A stretch of 26,055 nt of DNA from the NCBI RefSeq assembly GCF_000142905.1, contig NW_013657634.1, positions 268,318 to 294,372 of the forward strand, in the 5' to 3' direction. Positions 149 to 26,055 of this stretch are shown piece by piece (position 1 is the stretch's first letter; each line of letters starts with the position of its first letter). Made by a program: the position numbers and the translations under genes. Source of the DNA: Thecamonas trahens ATCC 50062 (taxonomy: Eukaryota > Protista > Apusomonadida). Below the pieces are notes generated by a model. It did no database searches and had not been told where the DNA came from. It saw only the letters and a list, made by a program, of their open reading frames with translations.

Positions 149-711
149 TGTGGGTGGTGTGCGGGTGGAGTATGGGTGGAGTATGGGTGGAGTATGGCGT
201 CGTCACGTGTTGCGGTCGTCATGGTGTGGCTTGTTGTTGATGATGATGGTGATGACCATGATGATGGTAATCATTATGATCTTTATGGCGACGATCATTC
301 ATAGGTTGTGGTACATGTAGTGGCTCTGTCGAGTGCGTGGTCTCCTATCACAGTGTCTGGTGCTGCGCTCCCGAGCGCTGGCTAGAGTGTAGCCTGGCTC
401 TCGACGCGGGGTATGGCCAAAGCTGCGACATGCACCGCATACTTGCTCTGCCATCTCCTTCTCCACCTTCTGTCGGTATTTGATCTCTGCTCTGCAGGCT
501 TTCTGACAACTTCTCGCGGCTAGAAGCGTACCTCCACCAGGCGATGATGATGATCATCACCCTACGGCAGTGATGGTGACGACGTCCTTCCAATCCTGTT
601 TGTGGTTGCAAGTAATCGAAAAAATGAACCCAGGAGAACGAATAGCAATGACAAAGGACCAAGTGGAGGGCGAGAGAGAGACAGAGCCACCACTCGACTC
701 CAGCCCGCACC

Positions 712-729
712 ATGTCGTCGCAGCCTTCG
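712..729 (+). CDS. MVP: Major vault protein, exon 1 (MSSQPS).
   Basis: ATG at 712, six codons, then GTACGC at 730. With the exon 2 junction this gives MSSQPS|VIRVPPFSYIHILD, which matches the vertebrate MVP N-terminus M-x5-IIRIPPYHYIHVLD in length and sequence. Confidence 0.75.
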
Positions 730-955
730 GTACGCAGCCACAGCACCCGCCCTCCCCACACATACGCACACACACAAGCACTACAAGCACTACACGCTAC
801 TCCCTCCCAACCTCCCCCCCTCCTCCCCCCCCTTTTACCCCATTCCCCCCCCTCCCCTCCTTCCCCCCCCCCTCGCCCCGTCCCCCTCCCCCTCCACCTG
901 GCAATGGAAAGAAAGCCCCTCAGCGTTCCTTCCACCCCTTCCCCACCCTCCACAG
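730..955 (+). other. Spliceosomal intron (226 nt, phase 0) in MVP. Donor GTACGC, acceptor CACAG.
   Basis: GT at 730-731 and AG at 954-955. The interior is pyrimidine-rich with a poly-C/CT tract at 820-900 and CA repeats at 760-800. Removing it restores the conserved MVP N-terminus in frame. Confidence 0.75.
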
Positions 956-3523
956 GTCATTCGTGTCCCGCCGTTCTCGTACATCCACATTCTGGATAAC
1001 AATGTCAATGTGACGTCGATTGTGGCAGGGCCGCGGACGTACACTCGCCCGGATCATGTCCGGGTTGTGCTGGGGCCAGAGAAGATGATTACCATTCCGC
1101 CTCGGCACTACTGTGTGGTGGGTAACCCGGTGGTTCGCGATGACGGGGGCAACCCGGTGGTGGACGAATACGGGCAGTACAAGCTGCGGTTTGGCGACGA
1201 GGAGGTCCGCGAGGCGCAGGACCGTTTCCCGCTGTACCCGGGCGAGTCGCTGGTGACAGGCGTGACGCAGATGCCGGTGATCGAGACGAACACGGCGATG
1301 CTGCTGCGGGCCAAGCGCGATTTTAAGCAGACGCTTGCCGACGGCGCGACTGTCGACCGCATTGCCGGTGAGGAGTGGCTTGTTCGTGGGCCGACCGTGT
1401 TCAAGCCGATGGTGGAGGCCGAGTATGTGCGGACGGTGGAGGCGACGGTGGTGCGGCCGAACCAGGCGCTGCGTCTGCGTGCACGGCGCGACTGCATCGA
1501 CGCCAATGGGGTGCAGCGGCGGACGGGCGAGGAGTGGCAGCTGCGGTCCGAGGGCGCATACCTGCCGTCCGTTCACGAGGTGGTTGTCGACGTTGTCTCG
1601 GCGTATGTGCTGACCGAGAAAACGGCGCTGCACCTTCGTGCGACGCGCAACTTTGACGACGCGCTCGGAGTGAGCCGCCGGGCCGGCGAGGAGTGGTTGG
1701 TCACGCTCGCCGACGCCGACCAGTACATCCCGGATGTGTACGAGGCTGTGGTGGGCCAGATCGAGATCACGACGCTGACGAACCGGCAGTACTGCGTGGT
1801 GGTGGACCCTGTCGACGCGAAGACCGGTCGGCAGCGGTTCGGGCACCGCGAGGTGCGGATCGGCGAGCGGTCGTTCTTCCTCAACCCAGGCGAGCGACTC
1901 GAGTCGGGCATCGAGGACGTGTACGTGCTCGGCGAGGACGAGGCGCTGGTGATCCGCGCCAACCAGGCGTTTGACGACGTGGTGGCGAGCCGCGGCGCCG
2001 ACGGGGCGGTGACCGAGACAACGGTGGCGCGGACGCCCGGCGACCTGTGGATGATCATGGGCCCGCGCGAGTACTTTCCGCGGGTCGAGGTCTCTGTTGT
2101 TGACGTCCGGCGGGCGATTCCGCTCGACGACAACGAGGGCATCTACGTCCGCAACATCACGTCTGGCGAGGTGACGGTTGTCTCGGGCGAGAGCTACATG
2201 ATCCGCGAGGACGAGGAGCTGTGGCGCAAGGAGCTGCCGGCCGACGTGGAGGCGCTGCTGGCCAACGCTGCGACGCGCGACCCGCTGGCAGACCGGCACG
2301 CCCGCGGCAACGACGACAACACCTCGGCGTCGGGTCGCGACATGACGCGGGCGGTGACGTTCCGGGTCCCGCACAACGCGGCGGTGCAGATCTACGACTA
2401 CAAGCTCAAGGAGTCGCGGGTGGTGTTTGGCCCGGACCTTGTACTGCTCCGGCCGGACGAGCAGTTTACGCCGATCTGCCTCTCGGGTGACAAGCCGAAG
2501 CGGCCGAACGTGATCAAGTCGCTCGCGCTGCTGCTCGGCCCGGACTTTGCAACAGACATCATCACGGTGGAGACGTCGGACCACGCCCGGCTCTCGCTGC
2601 AGCTCTCGTACAACTGGCACTTTGACGTCGACCGGTCGTCGCCCGAGTCGGTCCGCAAGCTCTTTTCGATCTCGGACTTTGTGGGCGACATGTGCAAGCG
2701 CATCGCGTCTCGGGTCCGTGGCGCTGTGGCGCAGGTTCCGTTTGACGTCTTCCACAAGACCTCGGCGACGCTCATTCCCGCGGCCCTGTTTGGGCAGGAC
2801 GACGAGGGCAACGTCGGCAGCTACTACAAGTTCCCGGGCAACAACCTGGTCATCACCTCGATTGACATCCAGTCGGTGGAGCCGGTCGACCAGCGGACGC
2901 GCGACTCGCTCCAAAAGTCGGTCCAGCTCGCCATCCAGATCACCACCGCCTCGCAGGAGGCGACGGCCAAGCACAACGCCGCCCGCGTCGAGCAGGAGGC
3001 CCGCGGCGCGCTCGAGCGCCAGCGCATCCAGGACGAGGTCCGCGCCGAGGAGTCGCGCAAGGAGCTGCTCTCGCTCAAGGCCCTCTCTGCCGCCGTCGCC
3101 TCGTCCGGCCAGGCCACCGCAGAGGCCAAGGCCCGCGCTGAGGCCGCCAAGATTGCTGGCGAGTCGTCGCTCGAGGAAGCCAAGCTCAAGGTCAAGGCCC
3201 AGGAGATCGAGTCCACCGCCGAGCTTGCCCGCCTCGTCGCCCACCAGAACGCAGAGGTCGACCACATGCGCAAGCTCAACGAGCTCGAGGTCGCCAAGGC
3301 CCGTGCAGAGGCCGACATTGAGACCAAGCGCTGGGTCGAGTCGGTCGCCGCCCTCGGCCCCGAGACCATCCGCGACCTTGCTCGCGCCGGCCCCGAGACC
3401 CAGGTCGCGCTCCTCAAGTCGCTTGGTATCTCGTCGGTCCTCGTCACCGACGGCAACTCGCCCATCAACCTCTTCAACACCGCCTCGGGTCTCATCGGCT
3501 CGGGTGCCGGCGCTGACCAGTAG
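956..3523 (+). CDS. MVP: Major vault protein, exon 2 (vault repeats, shoulder and cap-helix).
   Basis: Near-colinear matches to MVP: PPRHYCVV, FPLYPGE, ALRLRARRDC, TGEEWLV (repeated), NEGIYV, VPHNAAVQIYDY, LLLGPDF, DHARLSLQLSYNWHF, SVEPVDQRTRDSLQKSVQLAIQITT, and a coiled-coil C-terminus ending PINLFNTASGL. Stop TAG at 3521-3523. Confidence 0.92.
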   Translation, partial: VIRVPPFSYIHILDNNVNVTSIVAGPRTYTRPDHVRVVLGPEKMITIPPRHYCVVGNPVVRDDGGNPVVDEYGQYKLRFGDEEVREAQDRFPLYPGESLVTGVTQMPVIETNTAMLLRAKRDFKQTLADGATVDRIAGEEWLVRGPTVFKPMVEAEYVRTVEATVVRPNQALRLRARRDCIDANGVQRRTGEEWQLRSEGAYLPSVHEVVVDVVSAYVLTEKTALHLRATRNFDDALGVSRRAGEEWLVTLADADQYIPDVYEAVVGQIEITTLTNRQYCVVVDPVDAKTGRQRFGHREVRIGERSFFLNPGERLESGIEDVYVLGEDEALVIRANQAFDDVVASRGADGAVTETTVARTPGDLWMIMGPREYFPRVEVSVVDVRRAIPLDDNEGIYVRNITSGEVTVVSGESYMIREDEELWRKELPADVEALLANAATRDPLADRHARGNDDNTSASGRDMTRAVTFRVPHNAAVQIYDYKLKESRVVFGPDLVLLRPDEQFTPICLSGDKPKRPNVIKSLALLLGPDFATDIITVETSDHARLSLQLSYNWHFDVDRSSPESVRKLFSISDFVGDMCKRIASRVRGAVAQVPFDVFHKTSATLIPAALFGQDDEGNVGSYYKFPGNNLVITSIDIQSVEPVDQRTRDSLQKSVQLAIQITTASQEATAKHNAARVEQEARGALERQRIQDEVRAEESRKELLSLKALSAAVASSGQATAEAKARAEAAKIAGESSLEEAKLKVKAQEIESTAELARLVAHQNAEVDHMRKLNELEVAKARAEADIETKRWVESVAALGPETIRDLARAGPETQVALLKSLGISSVLVTDGNSPINLFNTASGLIGSGAGADQ

Positions 3524-3592: not shown

Positions 3593-5988
3593 CTACAGCT
3601 CCTGCTTGCGCGCCGCCATTGCTGCCTGAGCGGCGGCGAGCGCGGCGGCATACGCGTCGTCGGCGTTGGCGCCGTCGTTGGCGGCAGATCCGGCGCTGTC
3701 TGTGGCGTCAAAGTCGTCGAGCTCACCGGCTGCCGCCGCGGCGTCGTCGCCGTCCTCATAGTCAAAGTCATCGAGCGACTCGGCGCCAAGGACGGCCGCG
3801 TCGGGAAGCGGCAGTGTTCGCTCGCGGCCGCGGGCAACCCGGTCGACAAACTGGGCAACAGCATCGGGTTTGAGGGCGCCGACGTAGACCGCGTACCGAG
3901 CCTTGGCCGGATCGAGAACAACCAGGGCCGGGAAGCCAAACTCCAAGTGCAGCGCTTCGTTGAACGACAGGTGGTGCGACTTGAGCCAGACTGGGCGAAC
4001 AGAGGTGGCCTTGGCCTTGCCCGCCGCCGCGCGGAGCAGGCCGCGGTACCGCAGGTTGTCCTGTGCAAACTCGGCACCGGGCGCAGCATCAAGGACCATC
4101 AGCAGGCACATGCCGGACGACTTGTCAAGGCAGGCCTGGGAGAGCCCGTCCTGATCGGCGGCGTAGGCGAGCGGAAGCGGCTTGGCCTTGGCCTTGGCCT
4201 TACTCTTGGTCTTGGTCTTGGCCTTAGCCTTGGTCTGCCCGGGCACCTCGCCGTTCTCGATCATCTCGACCTCGGCCAGGAGCTGGTTCATAAACGCACG
4301 CAGGTGCTTGAGCTTGTACGGGCCCTGATAAGGGATGAACCGGATCTGGGCGCGGTCGCCACCAAACGAGCCGGCGACAAGCAGGGCCGGGAATGACTCG
4401 ATCGAGTCCATGCCGGCGATGAACTGGGTGTTTTCGGCTGGAATCTGGGCAAAAAACAGCTTCCCACGGTAGTCGCGGGCGAGGATCTTGTACATGGTCG
4501 AGACGGTCTCGGCCTCGGAGAACAGAATGACCTTGGGCGTCGCCAGGTTATGCTGGAAAAACGCCGAGGTCGCCTCCTGGGTCTTGAGCTGCATCACATA
4601 GTTGGGCACGAAGCTCAACGCCCACTCGTAGAGCGGCTTGGCCTCGCGCGGCCCATCGTAGCGCACCGGCTTGCGCTTGGCGTTGAGCGGAAAAGCAACG
4701 AGTGCCGACTCGCCGGGCGCAAGGCTGTCCATGCCGTACTTGGCTGCGAGCTTGGGCTCAGCCTCGACATCAACCAGTCCAGTGTGGATCTTGGAGACTA
4801 GCTTGCGCGAGACCTTGTCCCACAGCGGCCTGCCAGCAGGCTCGCTGGTGTAGCTCGCGTGGCCCGCGTCGCGGACAAACTCGATGACCCACGCAATGTC
4901 CTCCACAAGGACTCGCTCGGTAAAAGCCGGCTTGTCGAGGATCTCGTAGCCAGGGCGGGCGGCCTCAGCCTCGGCCTTGGCGCGCGCGGCTTCGGCCTTG
5001 GCCTTGGCAGCCTCGGCCTTGGCGGCCTTGCGCGCCGCGCGCGCCGCGCGCGCCTCTTCCTTGGACAACGGCTTGACGTGTTCAACCTCGAGGCCATGCT
5101 CGGCCGCCACGTCGTCGACAAATGGTGGAGGACACCCAGAGTGATTTTGCCGTCGCGGCCGTCGCGGGCGGCGAGGACGGCGCCACTCACCGGGTCGATG
5201 GCCAGCAGGCCGACCTTTTCCAGCGGCGCACCGCTTCCGCCGTACCGGTGCCACACCGCGGCCATGGCCTCTGGCTTGGAGATACATGCCACACTCACAG
5301 CACCGCGGTGCTTGAATGCCAACATATCGAGAGCAATGAGCGGCTCGTCGCGCAGAAGAAGCACCAGCGGACCGTCAGTCGAATCCTTGGGCAGGGCGTC
5401 CTTGGCCACGACGCCGTCGGCCAGGCCACCGGCGAGCAGCGCAGCCGTATCGGCCTCAAACTGCTCGCGAAGGATGCCCGCCAGCCACTTGGCCACCAGC
5501 GCCTCGGAGAACTGTTCGGCGGTGTAGCGGACGGGCGACTTGTATGCGGCGCCTGCGGCATACGGATTGACCTTGAGCGCGGTAAAGGCATGCAAGGTCG
5601 GCAAAGTGGGAACCTTGTATGCCTTGAGCGTCTTGGCCGATGCCTCTGAATGCCGCACAATGCCGTAGCGGACTCCGATCTTGGCCATTCTTGGCGCAGC
5701 GCGGGTGAGCTGGGCCTCCAGCTGCGGACAGACCTTGCACATCTCGGCATCGCCGACATACAGAACCAGCCAGACCTCTGAATGCGGCGCCTTGATGACC
5801 ATCTCGTCAAAGTTGTCATCATTAAGCTCGACCAGTCCGCCCGCCTTGCCGGCCTTGCCCGCCTTGCCCGCCTTGCCGGCCTTGCCCTCTGCGCACTCGA
5901 CGGTCAGCACCAGGCCGACCAGGCCGACCATGGCCAGCAGGACCAGTACCCCTGCAGCCGTCCTCCGCATTGTCTGTCGTCGTGCCAT
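3593..5988 (-). CDS. ER-luminal protein of the protein disulfide isomerase family with multiple thioredoxin folds. It has a signal peptide, an acidic tail and a C-terminal KQEL. The active sites are noncanonical (CKVC and AGHA). It is read from two ORFs joined by a 1-nt frameshift.
   Basis: The N-terminus has a hydrophobic signal sequence, (GKA)5, and a thioredoxin-like domain with MCKVC (complement 5728-5739). The protein contains RDGK...FVDDVAAEHGLEVEHVKPL, which resembles the PDI b' domain end RDGK..[18 protein letters not shown]. It has VIEFVRDAGHASY...PLWDKV, resembling VEFYAPWCGHCK..PIWDKL but with both cysteines replaced. It has YDGPREAKPLYEWAL, resembling YTGPREADDIVNWL. The tail is acidic and ends in KQEL (complement 3596-3607). 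ORFs 4798-5988 and 3593-5287 are both on the minus strand in different frames. They switch at the AAA run at + 5120-5122. Confidence 0.75.
4181..4236. repeat. Hexanucleotide (CTTGGC)n repeat lying inside the PDI-like CDS, where it encodes KAKAKTKTKSKAKAKAK.
   Basis: Direct tandem repeat. It is in frame with the minus-strand ORF. Confidence 0.85.
5843..5887. repeat. 9-bp tandem repeat (GCCTTGCCS)x5 encoding (GKA)5 just after the signal peptide of the PDI-like protein.
   Basis: Perfect 9-mer periodicity, in frame. Confidence 0.85.
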
Positions 5989-6009
5989 GGAGGGGTGGAG
6001 TAGAGAGGT

Positions 6010-6125
6010 GTGTGGGTGGTGGGGGTGAGGGGGTTGGGGGTGGTGGGGGTCTTCGTGAATGTTGGTGCGTTGGTGGTGAGGTCAGCAGGGACGGGGGGGG
6101 GAGGGGGAGGGGAGGGGGGGGGGGC
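6010..6125. repeat. Homopurine G-tract (GGGGAGGGG-type) in the divergent intergenic region between the PDI-like gene and ALG9.
   Basis: Runs of GGGG..GAGGGGGAGGGGAGGGGGGGGGGGG at 6088-6125 and a G-rich stretch at 6010-6050. The same motif recurs at 1-10, 18786-18825 and 25992-26029. Confidence 0.85.
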
Positions 6126-6144
6126 ATCATATGAGCCCACCCAC

Positions 6145-6184
6145 ACATACATACATACATACATACATACATACATACATACAT
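6145..6184. repeat. Microsatellite (ACAT)x10.
   Basis: Direct tetranucleotide repeat. Confidence 0.95.
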
Positions 6185-6513
6185 GCGTATGTGTATACTT
6201 ACGTTTTCACACGCACATGTGTGCGCACCTCTCTGATCACACACCCCTCCCATGTCTTCCTCCTCCCACGCGATCATCATCGCCTCAATCACCATCGCAG
6301 GCTGCAGAGGTAGGCCACATGACGATGACGGGCTGGCAGATATACCATCGCACATGACCAGCATCACTGGCCACTTACACCTTCCGGCGGTCGGTCCGGC
6401 CGATGCCACGCGGGTGACTTGGTCCCCCCCCAAAGGCTCAGCACTGTGTCGACCGACACGGCTGGTCACGACACGCGACTCGTGGCCACAGTACCGATAG
6501 ACAAACAGGTGAC

Positions 6514-8379
6514 ATGGGTCGGTACTACCGGGTATGGAGCCCAAGCAGTGGGACGTTCCGCAAGGCACTGCTTGTGGCGCTTGTGATGGCTGTCTTCATG
6601 GCACCCATTCCCGACTGTGACGAGGTGTTCAACTACTGGGAGCCGCTCCACTACCTCATCCATGGCACCGGTCTGCAGACATGGGAGTACGCCTCGCAGT
6701 ATGCCCTCCGCTCGTATGCTTATCTCCTGGCTCATGCGCCACCTCTGGCTCTTCCTCTGGTGCTTAATGCTACTATTGGCTTGGGATCGCTCGCTGATGG
6801 CCGTCACTACCCTTCGGCTCCTGTGGCTGACTCGGCATGGGCTCCCGTCTGGACACGCTCGCTCCCGGGTGATGCCAACGTCAAGCTCCTGCAGTTCTTT
6901 GCCCTCCGCCTGGTTCTTGTCATTCTTGCCATATACGTTTTCTCGGCATTGTACTATGTCCTCGCGCAGCGGCTGCGTTTCTCCCACATTCCGATCTTTG
7001 TCCTCGTCTTTATGGCCCTCGCCCCGGGCCTCTTCCTCGCTGTCCCGGCCTTTGTTCCCTCATCAACTGCCATGGTCGCGCTCACTGCCGCATACGCCGC
7101 GTTTCTGGATCGCCGCGAGGCGCTAGCGGTGGCGCTTGTCGGTGTCGCCGGCCTTGTTGCCTGGCCCTTTGCCGCTTGGGCCGGCGTTCCCATCGCGCTG
7201 CACATGATGTTCCTCGGCCCGTCGCCGCTACCGATTGTCCGCCGCGTCGTCAAGTTTGTCGGCTTTGCTCTCCTCGCCGGCACCGTGCTCATCGGCCTCC
7301 TTCTTGCCATTGACTCGTCGTTCTACGGGTCTCCGGTCCTCGCCCCGCTCAACATTGTGATGTACAACGTGCTCGCCACCGCTGCCTCTGGCGGCGGCTC
7401 GGAGCTCTACGGTACCGAGCCGTGGCACTACTATATCCGCAACGGCATCGTCAACTTTAACCTTGCATTTGTCCTCGGCCTGCTTGGTCCGTTCCTCACT
7501 GTCCTCCCCGGCTGGCTCAGCCACTACAACCTTGTCTGCGGCCCGTCCCCGGCGTTCCGCTCTCGGCTCGCGGCGTACTTGTGGTCGATCTGGGCCTGGC
7601 TCGGCCTCATGCTCGCCCAGCCGCACAAGGAGGAGCGGTTCCTCTACCCGATCTATCCCGCGCTCTGTGTGTCGGCAGCTGTGACGCTTGCCTGCGGCGC
7701 ATCGCTCCTCGACAGTGTGCTGGCCAAGTGCAGCGGCGACGGTGACGCCGGCAGCAGCGCCGATGACGACGACGGCAAGGCTGCGTTTGTCACCCGCGCC
7801 TCGCTCACTTCGACGCTGGTGTGGATGATCTTGGCGCTCTTTGCCCTGCTCGCTGTCTCGCGGTCGGTGGTGATGGTGGTGGGCTACGGTGCGCCGCTCG
7901 AGGTCTACACCCATCTTGCCAACACCGAGTTTGATCCGGCGTTCCGCGCCGCGCTTCCGGTCAACGCCTCGGTCGCCGTCTGCGTCGGCAAAGAGTGGTA
8001 CCGCTTCCCGTCCCACTTTTTCTTCCCGGACGCCCGTTTCGCGCTCCATTTTATCGACGGTGGCTTTGGCGGCCTTCTCCCGCAGGCGTACGCGCCGTAT
8101 CCGGACGGGCTCAGCCGGCACGTGCCAGCCATGAACGATCGCAACGCCGCCGAGCCTTCTCGGTACGTTGCCGTCGACAACTGTGCCTACGTGGTCGATC
8201 TAGTCCTCTCGCCCGCCGACGACCTCGCTGCCCGCCAGCCAGAGACCTGGACCACTATTCTCGAGGTTCCGTTCCTCGACGCCGACGCCACGCCGGCATG
8301 GGCGCGCGCGTTCTATATCCCGTTCGTCGGGCCCCGCGCTATGGCATGGAAGCCGTACACCGTCTTCCGTCACAAGTGA
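6514..8379 (+). CDS. ALG9: ALG9 family alpha-1,2-mannosyltransferase (dolichyl-P-Man:Man6/8GlcNAc2-PP-Dol), glycosyltransferase family 22.
   Basis: DCDEVFNYWEPLHYL (6613-6657) matches the ALG9 signature DCDETFNYWEPTHYL. Other matches are TWEYASQYALRSYAYLL, LYGTEPWHYYIRNGIVNFN, QPHKEERFLYPIYP, VCVGKEWYRFPS, EPSRYV..VDL and RAFYIPF. It is a multi-pass TM protein of 621 aa, similar in size to human ALG9. Confidence 0.92.
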   Translation: MGRYYRVWSPSSGTFRKALLVALVMAVFMAPIPDCDEVFNYWEPLHYLIHGTGLQTWEYASQYALRSYAYLLAHAPPLALPLVLNATIGLGSLADGRHYPSAPVADSAWAPVWTRSLPGDANVKLLQFFALRLVLVILAIYVFSALYYVLAQRLRFSHIPIFVLVFMALAPGLFLAVPAFVPSSTAMVALTAAYAAFLDRREALAVALVGVAGLVAWPFAAWAGVPIALHMMFLGPSPLPIVRRVVKFVGFALLAGTVLIGLLLAIDSSFYGSPVLAPLNIVMYNVLATAASGGGSELYGTEPWHYYIRNGIVNFNLAFVLGLLGPFLTVLPGWLSHYNLVCGPSPAFRSRLAAYLWSIWAWLGLMLAQPHKEERFLYPIYPALCVSAAVTLACGASLLDSVLAKCSGDGDAGSSADDDDGKAAFVTRASLTSTLVWMILALFALLAVSRSVVMVVGYGAPLEVYTHLANTEFDPAFRAALPVNASVAVCVGKEWYRFPSHFFFPDARFALHFIDGGFGGLLPQAYAPYPDGLSRHVPAMNDRNAAEPSRYVAVDNCAYVVDLVLSPADDLAARQPETWTTILEVPFLDADATPAWARAFYIPFVGPRAMAWKPYTVFRHK

Positions 8380-9824: not shown

Positions 9825-10110
9825 GATTAGTCGTTGCCCATGGTTAGTCGTTGCCCATGGTTAGTCGTTGCCCATGGTTAGTCGTTGCCCATCATCAGTC
9901 ATTGCCCATCATCAGTCGTTGCCCATCATCAGTCGTTGCCCATCATCAGTCCTTGCCCATCATCAGTCCTTGCCCACCATCAGTCATTGCCCATCATCAG
10001 TCGTTGCCCATCATCAGTCGTTGCCCATCATCACTCGTTGCCCATCATCACTCGTTGCCCATCATCACTCGTTGCCCATCATCAGTCGTTGCCCATCATC
10101 AGTCATTGCC
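9823..10110. repeat. 17-bp minisatellite of about 17 tandem copies (consensus CATCATCAGTCGTTGCC, with variants CATGGTTAG.., ..CACTCG.. and ..GTCCTT..).
   Basis: Exact 17-nt periodicity across 288 bp. It starts at the F-box/WD start codon and ends about 100 bp before the myosin ATG. Confidence 0.95.
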
Positions 10111-10139
10111 GCCATTCCAACGGCCCAACACCACGTCAC

Positions 10140-10200
10140 TGCCACCACCACACACTCACACACACACACATCCACAAACACACACACACACACATCCATA
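10140..10200. repeat. Imperfect (CA)n microsatellite immediately upstream of the myosin ATG.
   Basis: The sequence reads cacacactcacacacacacacatccacaaacacacacacacacacatcc. Confidence 0.85.
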
Positions 10201-10208
10201 CACATACC

Positions 10209-13200
10209 ATGTCGACCCTCCAGATAGGTGACATGTGCTGGGTGGAGAACCTGGCAGCAGGTACTAGCGGAGGAGAGCAGGCCTCCCATGGCCACCACCC
10301 GTCGCGAGTGGCAGGCAAGGTCCTCGCCGTCTCGGACTCGATGGTGACGGTGGCCCCAGAATGGGGCGAGCTCTGTCCGACCTGTGCCCTCAAGCCGGAG
10401 CATACGCCTGCTCATCGTCCGGCAAAGGTCAACGTTCCGCTGGGAAACTCGGCAGACGCGGGCCAGCTCGCCGTGAGTGTCATGGACACGTCCAACGCCG
10501 AGGGGAGGGCAGACATGATGGAGCTGGCTGATCTGGCGGTGGGCGAGCTGATGTACAACCTGAGGTTGAGGTACAAGGCCCAGCCCATGCAGTTCTACAC
10601 ATATGTCGGGGACATCCTGGTTGTCGTCAATCCCATGGCGGACATGGGCGTCTCTGGCGAGGAGACAAAGGCTACGTACGCCGGCCTGCCGTTCCGCGAT
10701 GCGAGCGCCCCGCCGCACATCTACGCCGTCGCCGAGGCTGCCCACAAGGCGCTCGCCGAGACGGCCGCTCCGCAGGTCATCGTCATCTCGGGCGAGTCTG
10801 GCGCTGGCAAGACATACGCCACCAACGACGTGCTCGACTTTCTGGCCTACCGCGGCAGCGGGTGCGACCCAGCTCCTGCTCCCGGTCCTAACGCTGGCGC
10901 TGCTCCTTCTCCGCCCGGGGCGGAGATTGTGGCCAAGATCCGGGCTATCTCGGGCGTCATTGAAGCGCTGGGCAATGCCAAGACGTCGCGGAACCACAAC
11001 TCGTCGCGGTTTGGCAAGCTCGTCAAGGTCCAGTTCGACGAGGCCGGGGCCATCGAGGGCGCCGCGCTGCAGACGTACCTACTGGAAAAGTCGCGGATTG
11101 TCGACCAACAGCCCGGTGAGCGCAACTACCACATCTTCTACCTCATGTTCCAGTTCCTCGACCGCGGTGAGCGGTCGGCGCGCGGTCTCTCGGACTCGGT
11201 CGCGGACTACCCGTACCTCGTCGGCTCGCACGGCAAGAACGCCAAGTCATGGCAGTACATGCCTAGCGATCCGTCGGCGCCGCAAGCCGGGCTCGAGCCC
11301 ATGGCCGACGCCAAGCGGTGGGAGGCGTTCATCGACGCTGTTGTCACGCTTAACCTCGAGGACGATCTCTCGTGCGTGTGGGACACGCTCGCCGCCATCC
11401 TGCACCTCGGCACGCTGACTTTTGAGGAGCACGCTGGCTCTTCGACCGGCTTTTGCACCGTCTCGCCGCCTGGAGTTGTCTCGCGCATTGCAGGCCTCCT
11501 CGCTGTCGACGCCGACGCTCTGGCCACCAATCTGCTCTCGTGCGAGGTCGTCAACATGCGCCGTGCGTACCGACCCGACAAGGCCAAGCAGACCGCCGAC
11601 GCGCTGGCCAAACTCCTTTACGCCTCGCTCTTTGACGTCATCATCGAGCACATCAACGCGTCGATCAAAACCGGCTTCACCCGCCGGTGGATCGGCGTCC
11701 TCGACATCTTTGGCTTTGAGTCGTTCCAGTCGCTGCCGGACAAGCACGGCGTGCCCGACACCGCCAACCGGTTTGAGCAGCTCTGCATCAACCTCACCAA
11801 CGAGCGCCTGCAGCGGTTCTTCTACGACCAGCTCATTCCCAAGCAGCTCGCCCACTACGCCGACCACGGGCTCGACGTCGACGCCATCGAGTACGACGAC
11901 AACACCCTCTGTGTCAACCTCATCATGGAGGGCCGCAAGTCGCTCTTTGGCGCCCTCAACAACGCCACCAAGGAGGCTGCCACCCTTCCGGCCTTCCGCA
12001 ACAACCCGGAGCTTGCCGAGCGGCGCTGGGTCGAGACCATCAAGTCGACGTACAAAGGCGGCAAAGGCCGTCTCGCGCCCTCGACCGTAGTCCGCAAGTC
12101 CTCGCCCGACGAATTTGTCGGCTGGTTTGATGACAAGCTTGACTCGCGGGCCCACACCCAGTTTGCCGTCCACCACTACGCTGAAACCGTGTGGTACACC
12201 GTCGACGGGTGCGTCGAGAAAAACGCCGACAAGATTGCCCCCGAGCTTGTCACGCTTGTCTCGTCCTCATCGGCCGCCTTTGTCGCCGGCCTTTTTGATC
12301 CGGACCGCCTCGAGCTCAACACCTCGGTTGCCGACAAGTTTGCCGAGCAGCTGCGGGCACTCGTCTCGCCGGCGTCGTGGAACGTGCCTGGCCACCCGTC
12401 GGGCATGCTTGACCTTGCAGCGGAGCCTTTTTTCGTTCGCTGCGTCAAGCCAATCTGCTCGCGGGTGCCCGGCATGCCGCGTGCGCCGCTCTCCAACCAC
12501 AAGGTGCTCGACCAGCTGCGGTCCGCCGGTATGTACGCGGTCATCCAGATGCGGCTTGCCGGCTATGCGTCTGAAGTGGACAAGGCCCAGTTTGTCGAGA
12601 CCTACACCGAGCTTGTTGACGACATGGCAGCGTTCAACTCACTCTCGCTTGACAACCAAGTCCGCTCCATTTGTGCATCCGTCGTCGCCTCTACTCAGCA
12701 CGACTTGACAAGCGAATCCGGCATGGCGCCGTACCAGATCGGCAACTCAAACCTGGTCTTCCTCAAGGACGCCATGAACTACGCCCTGCGCGACGCGCTC
12801 GCTGCGGCTCGCGCGGCGCGTGCGGCCAAGCAAGCGCTGGCGCTCTCGCATTTTGCGGCGCTTTTCTCGATGTGGAGCGTCCGCCAGTCGATGCCGCGGC
12901 TGGTGCAGGTCTACGAACAGAACCAGGAACGCCTCGAGTTTATCCGGACCCGCATCGAGGGTGGTGCAAGCGAAGCAGAGGCCAAGGCCGCATGGGACGC
13001 CGAGCTCGCCACCCGCGCCGCGGCCATGGAGGCCGAATACAAGCTCGAGCATTTTATCCCGCTGCAAAAGGCCGCCGCCGCCGAGCCAGTCGACAAGCTC
13101 GACGCCGCCATTGCCAACATGCTCAAGGACGAGCCAGCCGGTGAGGCGCGCGCGGCTCTCGAGGCTAGGCGCAAAGCGCTGAAGGCATCGGCCAAGGCGG

Positions 13201-14846
13201 TTAACGCCGCGCTTGCTGCGCTCGAGGCCGACGTGTACAACGCCGAGGCCGAGACCGCTGCCGCAGACGCCATTGCTGACCTGGACGCAGTTGTTCTCGC
13301 CGAGGAGGCCGCGTATGCAGAGGACGTCAAGCGGCGCGAGGCGGCCGCCGCTGCTGCTGCTGAAGCCGCGTACATTGCCACGCATGTGACGTCGGTGGAG
13401 ACTGCGGCGAACGCGGTGCCGTTCGCCAAGGTCAAGGCCGCACTCACGGCGTTTGGCAAGCGGCATGCCAACATCCTCGGCAAACGCGAGAACCTTGAGA
13501 GCGCACTCCATGCTCATGGGGCCTCGCTCGACGACGCTCGCGCAGCGCTTGAGGCGCGGCTGGACGAGTTGCGGGCAAGCCCGCATTCAGACGAAGTGCA
13601 AGCCGGGGTGGCGACGGCGCTATCGGCGCTCGAGGTGCTCGTTGGCGGCGTCCACGAGTTCCTGCGGCTGATGGAGGAGCGCGTGGCGATGGCAGCGGCG
13701 GCGGAGGAAGCCAAGGAGCGCAAGCGCGAGGCGCGGCGCAGAAAGCGTGAGGCGCGCGAGGCACGGAAGCGCAAGCTGCTGGAGGCGCGGCAGGCCATGC
13801 TCTCGGCGCAGGAGCGAGTGGCCGCGGAGCGGGCGGCGGAGCGCAAGCGGCAGGAGGAGGCCAAAAAGCGGGCGGTGAAGCTGCTCAAGAAGAAGCAGAA
13901 GCGGCGGCTGCGGTGGTTCGAGACAGCAAGCGTGGCCATGGACGGCCTGCGTGTCTTGTTCCACCATGCCGAGGCCACGGTGCGGTACCTTGGCCCGCTG
14001 CCGTCGGCATCGGTCAACCTCCTCACGGCGCCCTACTACATCGGGCTGGAGATGCCGTATCCGTCGGATTTGTTCAACTCGGGTGACTACGAGGGTACGC
14101 AGCTGTTCGAGTGCTCGCCGGAGCATGGCATGTTTGTGGCGCAGGACTTGGTCTCGGTCCTGGTCGCCAGCGACGAGCTTCGCGCCGGCGAGCGGCATCT
14201 GCAGGTCGGCGACCGGGTGTGGCGGCGGAACCATGTTCCGCTGCAGACCGGCGTCATCATGTACTACGGTGAGACTCACTTTGACGAGGGCCCGTTTGTG
14301 GGCATCGCCCTCGACCAGGCCGGCTCTGGCACCAACTCGGGCCGGGTCCACGGCTTCAAGTACTTTAAGTGCGCCAAGGACTCGGGCCTGTTTCTGCGGC
14401 CAGAAGAGCTCGAGCGGATAGAGCCGTGGTCGCACTCTGTCGTCAAGGAGCGAACCAACGAGTACATGATTCTTAACGACATTTATCTCGACGACGACGA
14501 GTACTCGGAGTACGATGGTGACGAGGAGGATGGGACCAGCTCGCGGGCCAGCTCACGGCCGGCGTCGGGTGACGACTCGTCGTCGGGCGCGGTCTCCGAG
14601 ACCGTTCTAGACGCCATGGATCCCGACGAGCTCTACGCGCTTGCCGGTGGCGATGCCATGCTGACCGACGGCGCGTCTGAGCCGCTCTCGTCGGGAGTGC
14701 GGCTCAAAAAGTCACGGCTCTCGCGGCGCGGATCGGGCGCCGGTCGGTCGATGTCGATGCGCAATGTCGAGACAGCGCGGAGTGGACATCTAGTGCCGCC
14801 GATGCAGCGGGCGGCGTCGTCGCGAAACCGGATGCGCCGACGGTAG
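10209..14846 (+). CDS. Myosin heavy chain (motor domain, ~600 aa coiled-coil/charged tail, C-terminal CAP-Gly domain).
   Basis: Motor motifs are the P-loop GESGAGKT (10791-10814), switch I NSSRFGKLV, switch II LDIFGFE, LRLRYKA, and an HIFY-type relay. The tail is rich in A/E/K/R heptads. The C-terminus carries a CAP-Gly signature LQVGDRVWRR..GVIMYYGETHFDEGPFVGIALDQAGSGTNSGRVHGFKYFKCAKDSGLFLRPEEL (~14196-14430). The start is taken as ATG 10209 (MSTLQIGD), after the minisatellite. The upstream part of the ORF track entry 9885-14846 is a translated repeat. Confidence 0.9.
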   Translation: MSTLQIGDMCWVENLAAGTSGGEQASHGHHPSRVAGKVLAVSDSMVTVAPEWGELCPTCALKPEHTPAHRPAKVNVPLGNSADAGQLAVSVMDTSNAEGRADMMELADLAVGELMYNLRLRYKAQPMQFYTYVGDILVVVNPMADMGVSGEETKATYAGLPFRDASAPPHIYAVAEAAHKALAETAAPQVIVISGESGAGKTYATNDVLDFLAYRGSGCDPAPAPGPNAGAAPSPPGAEIVAKIRAISGVIEALGNAKTSRNHNSSRFGKLVKVQFDEAGAIEGAALQTYLLEKSRIVDQQPGERNYHIFYLMFQFLDRGERSARGLSDSVADYPYLVGSHGKNAKSWQYMPSDPSAPQAGLEPMADAKRWEAFIDAVVTLNLEDDLSCVWDTLAAILHLGTLTFEEHAGSSTGFCTVSPPGVVSRIAGLLAVDADALATNLLSCEVVNMRRAYRPDKAKQTADALAKLLYASLFDVIIEHINASIKTGFTRRWIGVLDIFGFESFQSLPDKHGVPDTANRFEQLCINLTNERLQRFFYDQLIPKQLAHYADHGLDVDAIEYDDNTLCVNLIMEGRKSLFGALNNATKEAATLPAFRNNPELAERRWVETIKSTYKGGKGRLAPSTVVRKSSPDEFVGWFDDKLDSRAHTQFAVHHYAETVWYTVDGCVEKNADKIAPELVTLVSSSSAAFVAGLFDPDRLELNTSVADKFAEQLRALVSPASWNVPGHPSGMLDLAAEPFFVRCVKPICSRVPGMPRAPLSNHKVLDQLRSAGMYAVIQMRLAGYASEVDKAQFVETYTELVDDMAAFNSLSLDNQVRSICASVVASTQHDLTSESGMAPYQIGNSNLVFLKDAMNYALRDALAAARAARAAKQALALSHFAALFSMWSVRQSMPRLVQVYEQNQERLEFIRTRIEGGASEAEAKAAWDAELATRAAAMEAEYKLEHFIPLQKAAAAEPVDKLDAAIANMLKDEPAGEARAALEARRKALKASAKAVNAALAALEADVYNAEAETAAADAIADLDAVVLAEEAAYAEDVKRREAAAAAAAEAAYIATHVTSVETAANAVPFAKVKAALTAFGKRHANILGKRENLESALHAHGASLDDARAALEARLDELRASPHSDEVQAGVATALSALEVLVGGVHEFLRLMEERVAMAAAAEEAKERKREARRRKREAREARKRKLLEARQAMLSAQERVAAERAAERKRQEEAKKRAVKLLKKKQKRRLRWFETASVAMDGLRVLFHHAEATVRYLGPLPSASVNLLTAPYYIGLEMPYPSDLFNSGDYEGTQLFECSPEHGMFVAQDLVSVLVASDELRAGERHLQVGDRVWRRNHVPLQTGVIMYYGETHFDEGPFVGIALDQAGSGTNSGRVHGFKYFKCAKDSGLFLRPEELERIEPWSHSVVKERTNEYMILNDIYLDDDEYSEYDGDEEDGTSSRASSRPASGDDSSSGAVSETVLDAMDPDELYALAGGDAMLTDGASEPLSSGVRLKKSRLSRRGSGAGRSMSMRNVETARSGHLVPPMQRAASSRNRMRRR

Positions 14847-14849
14847 CAG

Positions 14850-17602
14850 TTAGGGCGTAAAACAGGTCTCCAGATGAAAGTGGTAGTCGACGAGCGACGT
14901 GGCCGAGACGGCAGTGGTGGCGGCGTAGACGGCCGAGGCGAGCGAGGAGTTACCAGAGAAGAAAACGCCGACAGCGGCGTTGGGCCGGGCGAGAAGGCCC
15001 GAGTCGGAGACCACATCCTCGGCGTCGAGGTAGGAAAAAGCCGGGCCATGTCGGGCCGACCGCGGATGACGGTAAAAGGGAGCGCAAGAAAGACGTCGCG
15101 GGTGACAAAGAGGCGAACGTCGAGGGTGAGATCAGGCTCGTGGATAGAGGTGTAGAACTGGGACTCGAGCACCTCGAGCACGTCCTGGAACCAACGGAAC
15201 GAGTCGAGGTCGCGGCAGACCCACCAAAAGTGGAGATGCTTGAGTGGGAGAGCGAGACCGTGCTGGAGCCGGAAAATGATGTCGGAGAGGACGGCGGCGT
15301 AGGGAGTGACCCCGATGCCGGACGCGATGAGGACGGCGCGGTGGTAGGAGAGATACGGGTGCGGGTCCGAGCCAAACGGGCCCGCGACGTAGAGCCGGAG
15401 CGATGACGCCGGTGACGTCGGGTCCTCGATGCCGGACGCGGAGGACTCGGCGAGCGCGTAGACCTGACGGGTCCAAGAGTCGCGGGCGCCGACAGCCTTA
15501 AAATACACGTGCACGTGCTCCATAAGCGGCGAGGAGGCGACCGAGAACGGATGCCACTGCAGCTTGGAAATGCTTGGTAGGTGGAGGTGGACGTAGTCGC
15601 CGAGGGCGAGGGCGCGCGTCATGCGCGCCGACTTGACAAAGGCAACATGGACGACCGATCCCGGGAGCGCGTCGAGCGCGACAATGCGGGCGTCGGCGAG
15701 CGCGTGTGGCGCCGAGATGCCGCGCGCAATGAGGTAGAGAAGATAGCCCGGTGCGATGTAGTAGAGGGTACGGAGGGTGGTGGGATGCGCGACGAGGAGG
15801 AGCGGGAGGACGAGCGCGAGCTGATGTGGGTAGTAAAAGACCTCAAAGGCGATGCGGCGGATCTTCGGGTGTGCAAGCGGGACAATGGCGAGCATCAGAA
15901 GGAGGAGAAGGATGCCGGAGAGGCCGAGCCAGGTCGAGAAGACAATGGTGAGCGGCGAGTTGTGGGTGCGAAAGGCGGCGAGCGGGGTGCCCGGCGCAAA
16001 GGCCAGGTCGCGATCAGCCTGCGATGCAGCGGCAGTGCGAAAGGCGTTGACAACGTGAGCAGCGGTGTGGCCGAGAGCGCAGGCAAAGGTGGCCACTCCG
16101 CCGAGCCGATGGAAGAGCATCATGTGCTCCTGTGAGGGCCGGAGCCAGAGCGTGGCGGAGCGAGGCATGCGCGGCAGAAAGACTCGAACGACGGTGGTGT
16201 AGGTGGCGAGGCAGACCGGGAGAAAGAGAAACGCGACGCCGACGCGGATACCCGCGGCAAAGACCTTGGCGGCAACGAGCGAGGCACCAAGAATGCGGTG
16301 TGCTGCGTAGGAGCGGGCGATACGCGCGATGTAGACTGACTCGAGGGTGACAGCAAGGCAGATGAGGGCAAGCCAGAGGCAAAACGCTGGGTCGAGCTTG
16401 GCATGCATGCGGGCGGTGGAAGCGGCGGCGGCGACCGAGGCCCGGAGCGATGCGAGGTGCGAGGTCGCCGGCGCCGCGCTGGATGCCGAGCCGGAGATGC
16501 CGTAAGAGGCGAGTCGGGCGAGAACGCCTGCGGGCAGGTCTGTGGCAGTGGCGAGTGAGCTCCACTGAGCCGGCTCGAGGGCGAGAACGTCGCCGACGGT
16601 GGCGAGCTCCTGGAGCGCAAACTGTGCCATCCAGAGTTTCGCGCGCTCACGGCCGACGTTGGGTGAGAGCTTGAGATCCTCGGCGACAGCGAGGAGGGCG
16701 GCCAGAAGCGGTGCGTCTGGTGAGAAGGCGACTGTCGAGTATGTGCGGTGGGTTGTGAGCCAGGATCGCCACTGGCGAGTGGTGGGTGTAGCGTGGATGT
16801 GGAGGGTGAGCTCGGTGGCATGCTCGAGCTCGCCCCAGGTAAAGGCGGAGATGAAGCGCGGCCAGTCAAGGACGATGCTGCCGACCGGACGGGTCGGCGA
16901 GGCCGGCGACGAAAACGAGATGGCGCGCGAGCGCGAGAGGCTCGGGGAGAAGGCCTCGTTGTCGGCGGCGACCGAGGAGGCGAGCCACGAGCTGTGGATC
17001 TCGGCGACGAGATCGTCGCCAGCGAGGGCAGCGCCGCCGGGAGCGGCAAGAATGAGATGCGGGATGTTGCAGAGGGTGGCGAGGGAGAGCTCAGCGCCGG
17101 CTGTGGTGGAGCCGGCTGCCATGAGGAAGACAAACATGAGGCGGAGCTTCTGTGGCGCCTCGCCAGCAAAGGCCGAGGCAAAAGCGAGAAACTCAAGGAG
17201 TGGGACGGAGGGAGCGCGGGACGAGAGGCGCTTCTTCTTGGAGGGCGGTGGCGGGCGAGCGAGAATGGCGAAGAGGAGATCGACGGTGGAGGAGGCCGCA
17301 TCCCAGCCCGTCAGTCGGGCAAAGGCACGGCGGGAGAGGCGGTAGGTGAGGTTCGATGCGATGGCAAAGACGTGGGCCCAGCGCTTGATGAGCGAGTCGG
17401 GGCGGAAGACCCAGGCAGTGGCGACGCGAGTCATACCGCGGCCAAAGCGGAGGATGCGGCGACGCATGCCGGTGATAGGACAGACGCCCGTGGAGACGCC
17501 GAGCATGGCCTTTGCCGACTCGAGGGCGATGGATGCGTTCTGGAGGCTCCGCCAGTAGCTCGCAGCCGAGGCATCAAGTAGAGGCCTCTGCGCCGTGAGC
17601 AT
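14850..17602 (-). CDS. NADPH oxidase / ferric reductase (NOX/FRE) family protein with a ~400-aa N-terminal extension of unknown function. The C-terminal ~60 aa are read in a -1 frame relative to the long ORF.
   Basis: A TM region carries heme-ligand histidines (HRLGG..GHTAAHVVN, YYPHQLAL). FAD-binding HPFS is at about + 15545-15560. NADPH-binding GIGVTPY is at about + 15291-15311, with CRDLDSF. GRPDMARLF resembles NOX GRPNWDNEF. In the other frame, AAVGVFFSGNSSLASAV...DYHFHLETCFTP-stop matches the NOX2 C-terminus [15 protein letters not shown]...HFIFNKENF with the same spacing. The frames switch at the A5 run at + 15035-15039. The stop (TAA, complement 14850-14852) lies 3 bp from the myosin stop. 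Confidence 0.85.
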
Positions 17603-18785
17603 CAGCCATAGAGGAGGCCCAGACGGAACCCAGCGTCTCTCGTATACCCTCTAGCGACTCGGTCCGTCTTGTCCGTCCTCTTCGCTCTGAAAGCTGCCCT
17701 CCTCTCGGCAGTCGGCTGCGCCGACCTGCTGATGACGACGATGACGACCGCGCCCAAATCGAGCCGTGGTCGTTGCTTTTGTCGTTGTAGCCATCGTTGT
17801 TGCAGTCATCGCCGTTGCCTGCTGGCTGGGCCATCTGCTGCCGATTCGATACCGTCTCGCGGTGCCTCAGTCTGCGATCTGTCGATGGCTTCATCTGCTT
17901 GCTCTTGGACCGAGTCTGGTCGCTGGCATGCGCACTCGTCACCTGTGACCTCCCTCCGTTTGCTGCCGGTTGTGTATGCAGAGATTCAGTGCTCCAGCTC
18001 GAGGTCGACGAAGCCATCACGGCTCGAGTAGAGGGGTGTCCGAGTTGGGTGCGACGGGCTACACCTGTCGAGTCGCCAGGACTGGCGGCGTGCGGATGGC
18101 GCCTTGGCAGCTCCGACTGTGTCGACACAGTTGGCTCGTGAGGAGCAGGAGCTCATCCATCCCGCCCGTTGATGACGATCCATGATGACGATCATGATGG
18201 GTGTCTTCTTGGCGGCCAATTCCTACCTTGATCGCATGCGTACGCAAGCATGTGGGTCATCCGTGCCAAGCGGCAGCTGCACGGATGTGCTGGCATAGAG
18301 GCTGATGAGACCGTCGAGCCAGCGGATCGACCACTTGGCCGGCAACCAATGGTGTGGCCAGATCAGCTGGTAAACATCGCTGCTCACTCGGGTGCTCATG
18401 TGTCAGCACAGAGTCACCTCATCGCTTGCGAGAGGTCATGCCCGACTGCCGAGTGCCGAGTGCGCGGGCAGAGTTTGGTCAGCAGCCGGCCGCTTCCCGA
18501 GCCGGAGCCACATACACGCACACCCTTGACACTTGACGCAGGCGGGTACACACTTGACGAGATATGTCTGCAAGAGGTAGTGGAAGCTCTGCATCGGCGT
18601 CTGGGTGGTGCCTGCCGACGGCGGCAGGCTCTGGTTGGGCCTTCTGGAAGGAGGTCAAGGCCGACAAGCACAGGCTGTTCACCATGCAGAAGCACAAGAG
18701 CCATGGCAAGTCGAGGTTCTCGGCTTTGGCGTCATCGGTTACCGTATGTGAGTGTGTGTATGGGGGAGGAGTGGGAGGAGTGGGA

Positions 18786-18825
18786 GGGGGGGGGAGGGGG
18801 GGGGGGGGGGGGGGGTGGACTCATG
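18786..18825. repeat. Poly-G / GGGAGG homopurine tract.
   Basis: The sequence is gggaggggggggggagggggggggggggggggggggtgg, followed at 18837-18905 by a (GGTGAT/GGTGGT)n microsatellite. Confidence 0.9.
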
Positions 18826-18979
18826 AGTGGTGATGGTGATGTCGATGGTGATCGGGGTGGTGATGATGATGCTGGTCGGGGTGGTGATGGTGATGATGGT
18901 TGTGCGGGCTATGGCCATGGTGGTTATGCGGGTTGTGTGGGTCGTGGTCATCTGGGTCAAACAGAAAACGGTGCGCGGC

Positions 18980-24715: not shown

Positions 24716-25707
24716 TTACTCGGAAGCAGCAGGCGCCTCGGCAGTGGCCGCAGCCTCGCCATCAAGCGTCTTCTGCTTCTTGGCGGGCGCCGCGCCGTCG
24801 TCGCCGGCTGCGGCGTCGTCCTCGGCCTTGCGCTTGGGGGCAGCGTGCTGGATGCCCTTGGCGCCCATGCGCGAGATGCGGCCGCGGACGCGGGCCTCGA
24901 CAACGCCGTGCCAGTACTTGGTCTCGGCCTCGCCGTCGACAACAGCAACAGCAAAGACCTTGTCGGCCAGGGTGCGCTTGGTATCGTCGGTGGAGAGGTC
25001 GGCGACGGCGGCGGCGGCGACAGGGGCGGCGAAGCGGATGTAGCCCTCGGTCTGGCCGCGCGAAAAGTCGACGCGCTGGACGTCGCCATAGGCGCGGAAG
25101 ATGGGGAGCATGTCTTCGCGGGAGATGCCCTCAGAGGCCAGCTCGGTCACGTGAACAACACAGCCGGGGATGACGTCAAAGGCGGCGATCTCAGCGGCAA
25201 CCTCGGCAGCGATGGCCTCCTCGGTCGGCGGCGCAGCGGCAGCCTTGGATGCGTTGCGGCGCTCGATCTTCTTGGCGCGGGCACGGGTGAGGTAGTCGAG
25301 CTTCATCTCCATGGCCAGCGGCTCCAGCTCGGGCGCAGCGCGGATCTCCTTGGCAATGATGGCCTTGGCCTCGTCGACGGTGGCAAACTCGACAAAGGCC
25401 GAGCCCTTGAACAGATGGGTCTGCGGGGTGCGGCGGAGGCGGACGGAGAGCACCTTGCCGTGCTCAGCAAAGAGCTCGGTGATCGACTCGATGGTCGTCA
25501 CCTCACCATCACGAACAAAGCCCTTGGCGTAAATCGACCGCTCATCGATGTCGAGCTTGGCCGGCAGCGGCTGAGCCCGACGGACGTTCTTGCCGTCGTC
25601 CGAGACAACCAGGGCGTCCGACTCGCCCAGAGCCGCCGCCAGGGCCTCGTTGTCGAGTCCCATCTGCTGCACACGCTTGAACTTGGCGAGCTCCTCAAGA
25701 GGAACAA
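24716..25707 (-). CDS. La protein (La motif + RRM + C-terminal basic NLS), exon 2.
   Basis: After splicing the protein reads ..NSDG-F-VPLEELAKFKRVQQ, which resembles the La motif ..KLDEGWVPLEIMIKFNRL. An RRM follows (SIYAKGF...KGSAFVEFATVDEAKA), then a second RRM-like region and a KRK/KKQK tail. The stop lies 49 bp from the stop of the repeat-protein gene. Confidence 0.85.
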
Positions 25708-25869
25708 CTACATATGGATGTGGATGCAAGTGAGTGGGTGTGGTCAATGACCTTGGTGGGGGGAGGGGAGGGCGGAGGAGGGCAGTTTGCGGAGATGATG
25801 GCCATCTCGGCTCATCCCAGACGGCAAGGGCCAGGGCATGGGTGGGATGAGGGGCAGGGCAGTGCGTAC
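25708..25869 (-). other. Spliceosomal intron (162 nt, phase 1) in the La gene. Donor GTACGC, acceptor TATGTAG.
   Basis: On the minus strand the junction reads gac ggc t|GTACGC ... tatgtag|tt gtt cct. Removing the intron deletes an in-frame P/H-rich low-complexity insert (CTHCPAPHPTH...HLHPHPY) from the middle of the conserved La motif. It creates codon TTT (F), which aligns with the W of the La consensus. The intron is C-rich on the transcribed strand. Confidence 0.8.
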
Positions 25870-25990
25870 AGCCGTCAGAGTTCTGGGCAGTGAGGTTAAG
25901 GAGGTACTTGTCACGCGGGAGGTTCGAGTCGGAAAAGTAGAACTCGATCTGCTTGCGGGCGCGGGCTGCGGCGGAAGTCGTGTCAGCCAT
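25870..25990 (-). CDS. La protein, exon 1 (MADTTSAAARARKQIEFYFSDSNLPRDKYLLNLTAQNSDG).
   Basis: The La-motif core QIEFYFSDSNLPRDKYL is present. The ATG at complement 25988-25990 is directly preceded, on the transcribed strand, by a poly-C tract (the + strand G-tract at 25992-26029). Confidence 0.85.
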
Positions 25991-25991
25991 G

Positions 25992-26029
25992 GTTGGGAGG
26001 GGGAGGGGGAGGGGAGGGGGGGGGGGGGT
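25992..26029. repeat. Homopurine GGGAGGGGGAGGGG...G17 tract abutting the La start codon.
   Basis: The sequence is ggttgggagggggagggggaggggagggggggggggggggg. Confidence 0.9.
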
Positions 26030-26055
26030 AACGGAGAGAGGGCGTACGCAGTGCA

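Follow-up and report, generated by a model that had tools for sequence, protein, structure and literature searches.

The three GTACGC donors found in a 26,055-nucleotide stretch of nuclear DNA of the apusomonad Thecamonas trahens ATCC 50062 (~64% G+C; referred to here as the window) belong, with a probability of about 0.9, to ordinary major-type spliceosomal introns (U2-dependent, GT–AG) of an intron-poor apusomonad, lying near the 5′ ends of their genes. The hexamers occupy positions 730–735 (+), 25869–25864 (−) and 23–18 (−), and each has a coding exon directly before it, as the original prediction had reported. Two of the introns are complete—one in the major vault protein (MVP) gene and one in the La gene—and both are removed in the annotated products; their removal is needed for intact conserved domains. 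The evidence that these are introns is protein homology together with public annotation, and that annotation contains at least one false intron in the window (ALG9). The sound introns, about three in some ten genes, are the three with GTACGC; they follow codons 6, 25 and 40, and all thus lie within the first 40 codons. The observation is real, ordinary for the lineage and already known, since both complete introns are on record, as is the bias towards C at position +4 of the intron. The original prediction is right in its core, and what has to be corrected is its reading-frame argument, its palindrome and the completeness of its intron set. The mildly new elements are a conserved C-rich, G-poor composition of introns and leaders, and several annotation errors. 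Feature coordinates are given in Table 1.

Table 1. Genes, exons, annotated introns and the palindrome in the window, in order of position.
Feature	Position	Strand	Description
Third intron, start	1–23	−	Predicted; donor GTACGC 23–18, followed by a run of C that reaches the window edge; C 74%
Gene cut by left edge, first exon	24–98	−	MGGKPSKQHVVEDVVAREAEDIARK; ATG 98–96; codon score +0.48 per codon; GC3 0.72
MVP exon 1	712–729	+	MSSQPS, 6 codons; these residues open KNC53117.1, followed there by the translation from 956
MVP intron	730–955	+	226 nt, phase 0; donor GTACGC 730–735, acceptor CAG 953–955
MVP exon 2	956–3523	+	Identical (100%) to the major vault protein of T. trahens
PDI-like thioredoxin protein	between MVP and ALG9-like gene	−	
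ALG9-like mannosyltransferase	ORF 6514–8379	+	
ALG9 annotated “intron”	8097–8154	+	58 nt, GTATCC..GAG; false-positive call
F-box/WD40 protein	between ALG9-like and myosin genes	−	
Myosin with CAP-Gly domains	stop 14844–14846	+	
NOX/ferric reductase	stop (repaired) 14850–14852	−	
GCGTACGC palindrome	18238–18245	none	Intergenic, NOX/TMCO4; not a demonstrable donor
TMCO4/DUF726	annotated exons 18564–18743 and 18965–21160	+	
TMCO4/DUF726 annotated intron	18744–18964	+	221 nt, GTATGT..CAG; G 54%, T 25%, C 7%
Repeat protein, uncharacterised	between TMCO4 and La	+	1014-aa ORF
La exon 2	24716–25707	−	Exact protein match; Pfam La domain
La intron	25708–25869	−	162 nt, phase 1; donor GTACGC 25869–25864, acceptor TAG 25710–25708
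La exon 1	25870–25990	−	40 codons + 1 nt; spliced 370-aa model equals KNC53125.1/XP_013754792.1 exactly

Gene content was read from open reading frames (ORFs), codon scores and Pfam matches. Exact look-ups in GenBank identified five genes—KNC53117 (MVP), KNC53119 (ALG9), KNC53120 (F-box), KNC53123 (TMCO4) and KNC53125 (La)—and the gene order is consistent with a consecutive series from KNC53117 to KNC53125. The F-box gene is a single exon, confirmed by an exact protein match, and the ALG9 and myosin ORFs are continuous; simple ORF models of the myosin, NOX, PDI-like and repeat-protein genes gave no exact match in the protein look-ups. No snRNA was found by an Rfam scan of the window, the weak matches falling on microsatellites; weak “P34” matches are located on a 237-nt (79-aa) tandem repeat at 22206–23117 (+; 3.9 copies, 97% identity) within the 1014-aa ORF. 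A 17-nt tandem repeat (AGTCGTTGCCCATCATC; 16.6 copies, 95% matches) at 9829–10110 fills the interval that separates the F-box gene from the divergently oriented myosin gene. Only 3 nt lie between the stop codons of the convergent myosin (+) and repaired NOX (−) genes (14844–14852), so that their 3′ UTRs must overlap.

Removal of the MVP intron, which is already annotated in GenBank, yields exactly the annotated 861-aa protein (KNC53117.1), with the MVP N-terminus VIRVPPFSYIHILD after the junction. The intron starts with GT (730–731) and ends with AG (954–955), and its sole candidate branch site is a CTCAG at 919–923, 33 nt from the 3′ end. The original prediction held that the long ORF 602–3523 runs through this intron in frame; the ORF does span it, but its frame is that of exon 2 and not that of exon 1, which starts at the ATG at 712. 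Retention of the intron shifts the frame, 226 nt not being a multiple of three, and read-through from the true ATG ends at a stop codon after some 13 codons of exon 2.

The La intron is likewise annotated in GenBank, and the spliced sequence (25990–25870 joined to 25707–24719) agrees with KNC53125.1/XP_013754792.1 residue for residue. Splicing completes the Pfam La domain, which matches 2–57 of 59 profile positions (76 bits) in the spliced product and 2–30 of 59 (59 bits) in the unspliced one. The interval has the lowest codon score of the window (−0.37 per codon; GC3 0.56), and its ends are GT (25869–25868) and AG (25709–25708) on the minus strand. Possible branch sites are TTGAC at 25747–25743, at a distance of 36 nt from the 3′ end, and CTCAC at 25734–25730, at a distance of 23 nt. 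Both regions are therefore introns as originally proposed, with the lengths then given (162 and 226 nt), and the tracts upstream of their acceptors are strongly pyrimidine-rich. A search for La homologues found no close apusomonad.

The third intron is predicted from its 5′ part. The exon before it has 25 codons and begins MGGKPSK, an N-terminus of the MGxxxS form; GT is the one intron end visible, and the acceptor would lie outside the window.

GenBank annotates two further introns, in TMCO4 (GTATGT) and ALG9 (GTATCC), so the claim that GTACGC is common to all clear introns holds for three of three sound introns but not for the annotated set; position +4 is C in the former and T in both of the latter. 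The TMCO4 model matches KNC53123.1 exactly. Its intron has a composition opposite to that of the GTACGC introns and contains a run of more than 20 G, no CTRAY or yUnAy motif occurs near its 3′ splice site, and the codon score of its first exon (−0.12 per codon) is below that of every 60-codon true coding window tested. A good start codon at 18980 is followed by normal codon usage. We regard this intron as doubtful, and translation may start at the ATG at 18980; if the intron is real, neither GTACGC nor C-richness is universal.

The ALG9 call is a different case. KNC53119.1 (543 aa) equals the ALG9 ORF over residues 1–531, then skips 8097–8154 and ends in another frame, and we reject this interval as a real intron because its removal shifts the frame and costs the protein C-terminal motifs found in every homologue. 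Without the interruption, the ORF retains P.MND.N.EEPSRY, C.Y.VDL and RAFYIPF, which are common to all homologues (P0169–P0176), and its 621-aa translation is likely the true ALG9 product. The false call fits the remark of Roy and Bowser (2022, bioRxiv 10.1101/2022.06.08.495308) that intron-poor genomes carry many false intron calls. A U12-type identity was considered for this interval, which begins GTATCCGG, and was rejected, as it is without a branch motif and destroys conserved protein sequence. The same identity (donor /RTATCCTT, branch TCCTTAAC) was rejected for the GTACGC introns, whose donors differ and in which no TCCTTAAC is present.

Other candidate introns were also set aside. An in-frame intron at myosin 10862–10925 would break the frame (64 nt), and the site coincides with variable loop 1; one at ALG9 6760–6885/6894 is read through by both the annotated protein and the ORF. 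The PDI-like and NOX genes each contain a frame change that is a 1-nt shift at a T run (5120–5122 and 15035–15039, both −) rather than an intron, and that reflects either a homopolymer-length assembly error or a real frameshift. The PDI-like protein of a related apusomonad reads VLQSFVADVADSHG continuously across the 5120–5122 site. The NOX shift is based on coding potential and a NOX-like C-terminus, and Pfam gave no confirmation of the repaired C-terminus. Upstream of the PDI-like ATG (6050–6205, −) a perfect canonical GTAAGTAT precedes a (GTAT)n microsatellite and a C-rich tract, after which come CTGAC and AG; the arrangement may represent a 5′-UTR intron with a canonical donor, with no upstream exon evident.

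The hexamer is enriched in the window, with 22 occurrences against 11.3 ± 3.2 expected, a count in which three palindromic GCGTACGC sites are each entered twice. The donors make up 3 of these 22 sites and 3 of the 11 sense-strand genic ones; seven of the eight sense-strand coding occurrences read NNG-TAC-GCN, the codon pair Tyr-Ala. GTACGC alone is therefore neither specific nor sufficient as an annotation signal. With GT fixed and the base frequencies of the window, ACGC has a probability of ~0.006, and three identical hexamers one of ~2 × 10−7. Three donors are too few for a logo, and the window shows specific selection for C only weakly.

One of the GCGTACGC palindromes had been placed at 18233–18244 and described as carrying the donor motif on both strands. 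Its position is in fact 18238–18245, within the 1.3 kb that separate NOX from the divergently oriented TMCO4, and a donor role is unsupported: it is flanked by no coding exon on either strand, the sequence downstream is not C-rich, and the frequency of GCGTACGC is at chance level (3 copies in the window against 0.87 expected; 3 were reached in 8 of 100 shuffles). Another copy, at 26042–26049 (−), precedes the La start codon by 52 nt, and a C-rich tract comes after it. We considered it as the donor of a 5′-UTR intron ending before the ATG and rejected it, as no AG precedes the ATG.

Departure from the canonical donor is confined to two positions. GUACGC forms Watson–Crick pairs with AUACUUACCUG at four of six intronic positions (G1, U2, A3 and G5), with mismatches at +4 and +6. 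The original description of a non-canonical, lineage-specific donor thus stands for the C at +4, which is typical and already published: T. trahens “exhibits a preference for C at the 4th intronic position” (Roy and Bowser 2022); it does not stand for G1, U2, A3 and G5, which are canonical. Apusozoa are among the lineages that lost most introns (Roy and Bowser 2022). It had also been asked whether the 5′ end of U1 snRNA is complementary to GUACGC. Such co-evolution of U1 has precedent in Entamoeba and Mastigamoeba, but we consider it very improbable here, as the published search for T. trahens U1, run with a model blind to the pairing region, yielded one strong candidate, which carries the standard ACUUAC and shows no compensatory change (Roy and Bowser 2022). 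Given a normal U1, recognition of +4 and +6 would be either tolerated as non-pairing or done by later spliceosome components. GUACGC keeps four positions that pair with the standard U1 and leaves the C at +4 and +6 unpaired; the introns would follow the normal U2-type pathway, in which such weak pairing to U1 would be tolerated, as it is in GUAUGU lineages of the yeast type.

The C-rich composition may itself contribute the C at +4 and +6, and it is possible, though we think it unlikely, that the hexamer is not a selected lineage signal at all but a canonical core, GUA.G., with two loose positions filled from a C-rich background. The introns are 46–74% C, and the core G1, U2, A3 and G5 coincides exactly with the bases paired to a standard U1. 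C or Y at +4 and +6 also occurs in further GC-rich, intron-poor lineages (GYGCGY in Mamiellales, GUGCGC in Mastigamoeba). Supposing that constraint acts on these four positions only and that the bases at +4 and +6 are drawn from intron composition, P for three identical GTACGC donors is ~0.04; this is still low, and the published logo, built from introns filtered on branch-point motifs, shows a clear preference for C at +4 (Roy and Bowser 2022).

The intron bodies are C-rich on the transcribed strand, as had been noted: C is 58% and G 9% in the MVP intron, and C is 46% and G 17% in the La intron. The accompanying claim, that they contain no in-frame stops, is literally correct—the 54 codons of the La intron, spanned by ORF 24716–25990, have none in the reading frame, and the MVP intron has none in any frame—but is at chance level for the composition. 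Among composition-keeping shuffles, 41% (La) and 49% (MVP) had no stop in the relevant frame. The frames are open because a C-rich, G-poor composition makes stop codons rare; openness follows from composition and is not itself conserved. Any further meaning of it is unsupported, and the MVP intron of a relative has an in-frame TGA.

That relative is a related apusomonad represented by a contig in ENA sample ERZ17175005, whose MVP is 79% identical to that of T. trahens. Its MVP intron is at the same position, before V-V/I-R-V-P-P, and is at least 277 nt long (C 56%, T 26%, G 1%), with CTGAC 14 nt before the CAG. The two introns can be aligned over poly-C stretches only; composition is what they have in common. 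A metagenome scan for MVP relatives returned 33 loci, of which four (L030, L031, L032 and L035) were checked by tblastn. None of the four covers the N-terminal MVP intron; they come from AT-rich genomes (37–39% GC), and three are split by many introns.

These comparisons bear on two further readings of the introns. If the stop-free intervals were sometimes retained and translated as exitrons, they might be expected to be open, and the La interval (162 nt, 54 codons) is open in frame. We judge this highly unlikely: retention of the 226-nt MVP interval shifts the frame, the La domain is interrupted by the retained La interval, whose codon score is the lowest of the window, openness is found in 40–50% of composition-matched shuffles, and the relative's orthologous MVP intron contains the TGA. 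Just as unlikely is a mobile “introner” family whose copies would carry their own GTACGC donor. The donors are identical and the low-complexity bodies look alike, as those of such copies would, but all that the introns share with other parts of the window is poly-C or CT stretches of 20–60 nt, which are also found in 5′ leaders, and the MVP intron position is common to species whose MVPs are 79% identical, so the intron is old.

C-rich, G-poor tracts are also present just upstream of four start codons, at 99–212 (−), 5989–6148 (−), 10104–10208 (+) and 25991–26055 (−). These leader tracts have (C−G)/(C+G) values of 0.70–0.79 on the transcribed strand and are similar in composition to the introns; the leader of the relative's PDI-like gene (contig L002, 1–236) has 48% C and 6% G. 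With a similar skew in 5′ leaders, the C-rich composition is not intron-specific. We raise, as a speculative idea and one we doubt, that the C-rich, G-depleted composition of whole introns and 5′ leaders is a conserved apusomonad signal in intron definition. Its basis is that the same MVP intron in two species, with proteins only 79% identical and intron sequences that cannot be aligned, has kept this composition. Such a signal might involve poly(C)-binding proteins, for example, or the removal of cryptic sites (GU and AG) and, if it exists, would make up for the weak pairing of GUACGC with U1.

The value of ordinary major-type introns with a known +4 preference is mostly practical, for the re-annotation of T. 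trahens and its relatives. ORF-based gene calling in these genomes runs through introns or starts at an internal Met, as in the relative, where the ORF-based MVP call (P0002) begins at an internal Met and loses the N-terminus. Predictors that work free of evidence add false introns, one of which truncates ALG9 in GenBank. A donor model that combines GTACGC with a C-rich, G-poor body would aid re-annotation, the hexamer alone not being specific. The introns also provide another case of donor divergence without a compensating change in U1, a question already posed in the literature.

The closest comparison is with the T. trahens donors of Roy and Bowser (2022), which are from the same organism and likewise combine C at +4, intron poverty and incomplete pairing with U1, with no essential difference; the window adds three full GTACGC hexamers and the C-rich bodies, which are absent from the text of the preprint. 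The GUAUGU donors of Saccharomycotina, Giardia and Trichomonas are similar in that introns are few and 5′-biased, the donor is near-invariant with a pyrimidine at +4, and U1 is unchanged, whereas T. trahens has C and not U at +4 and +6, a G+C content of ~64%, and C-rich rather than A/U-rich intron bodies. The GYGCGY donors of Mamiellales (Micromonas and Ostreococcus) resemble those of T. trahens in having C at +4 and Y at +6, and they too occur in a GC-rich genome whose U1 is standard, but T. trahens has A and not G at +3, and no link to introners was seen. Mastigamoeba balamuthi (GUGCGC) and Entamoeba (GUUUGU) also have atypical donors with a pyrimidine at +4; the pairing region of U1 is changed in these organisms, and reportedly is not in T. 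trahens.
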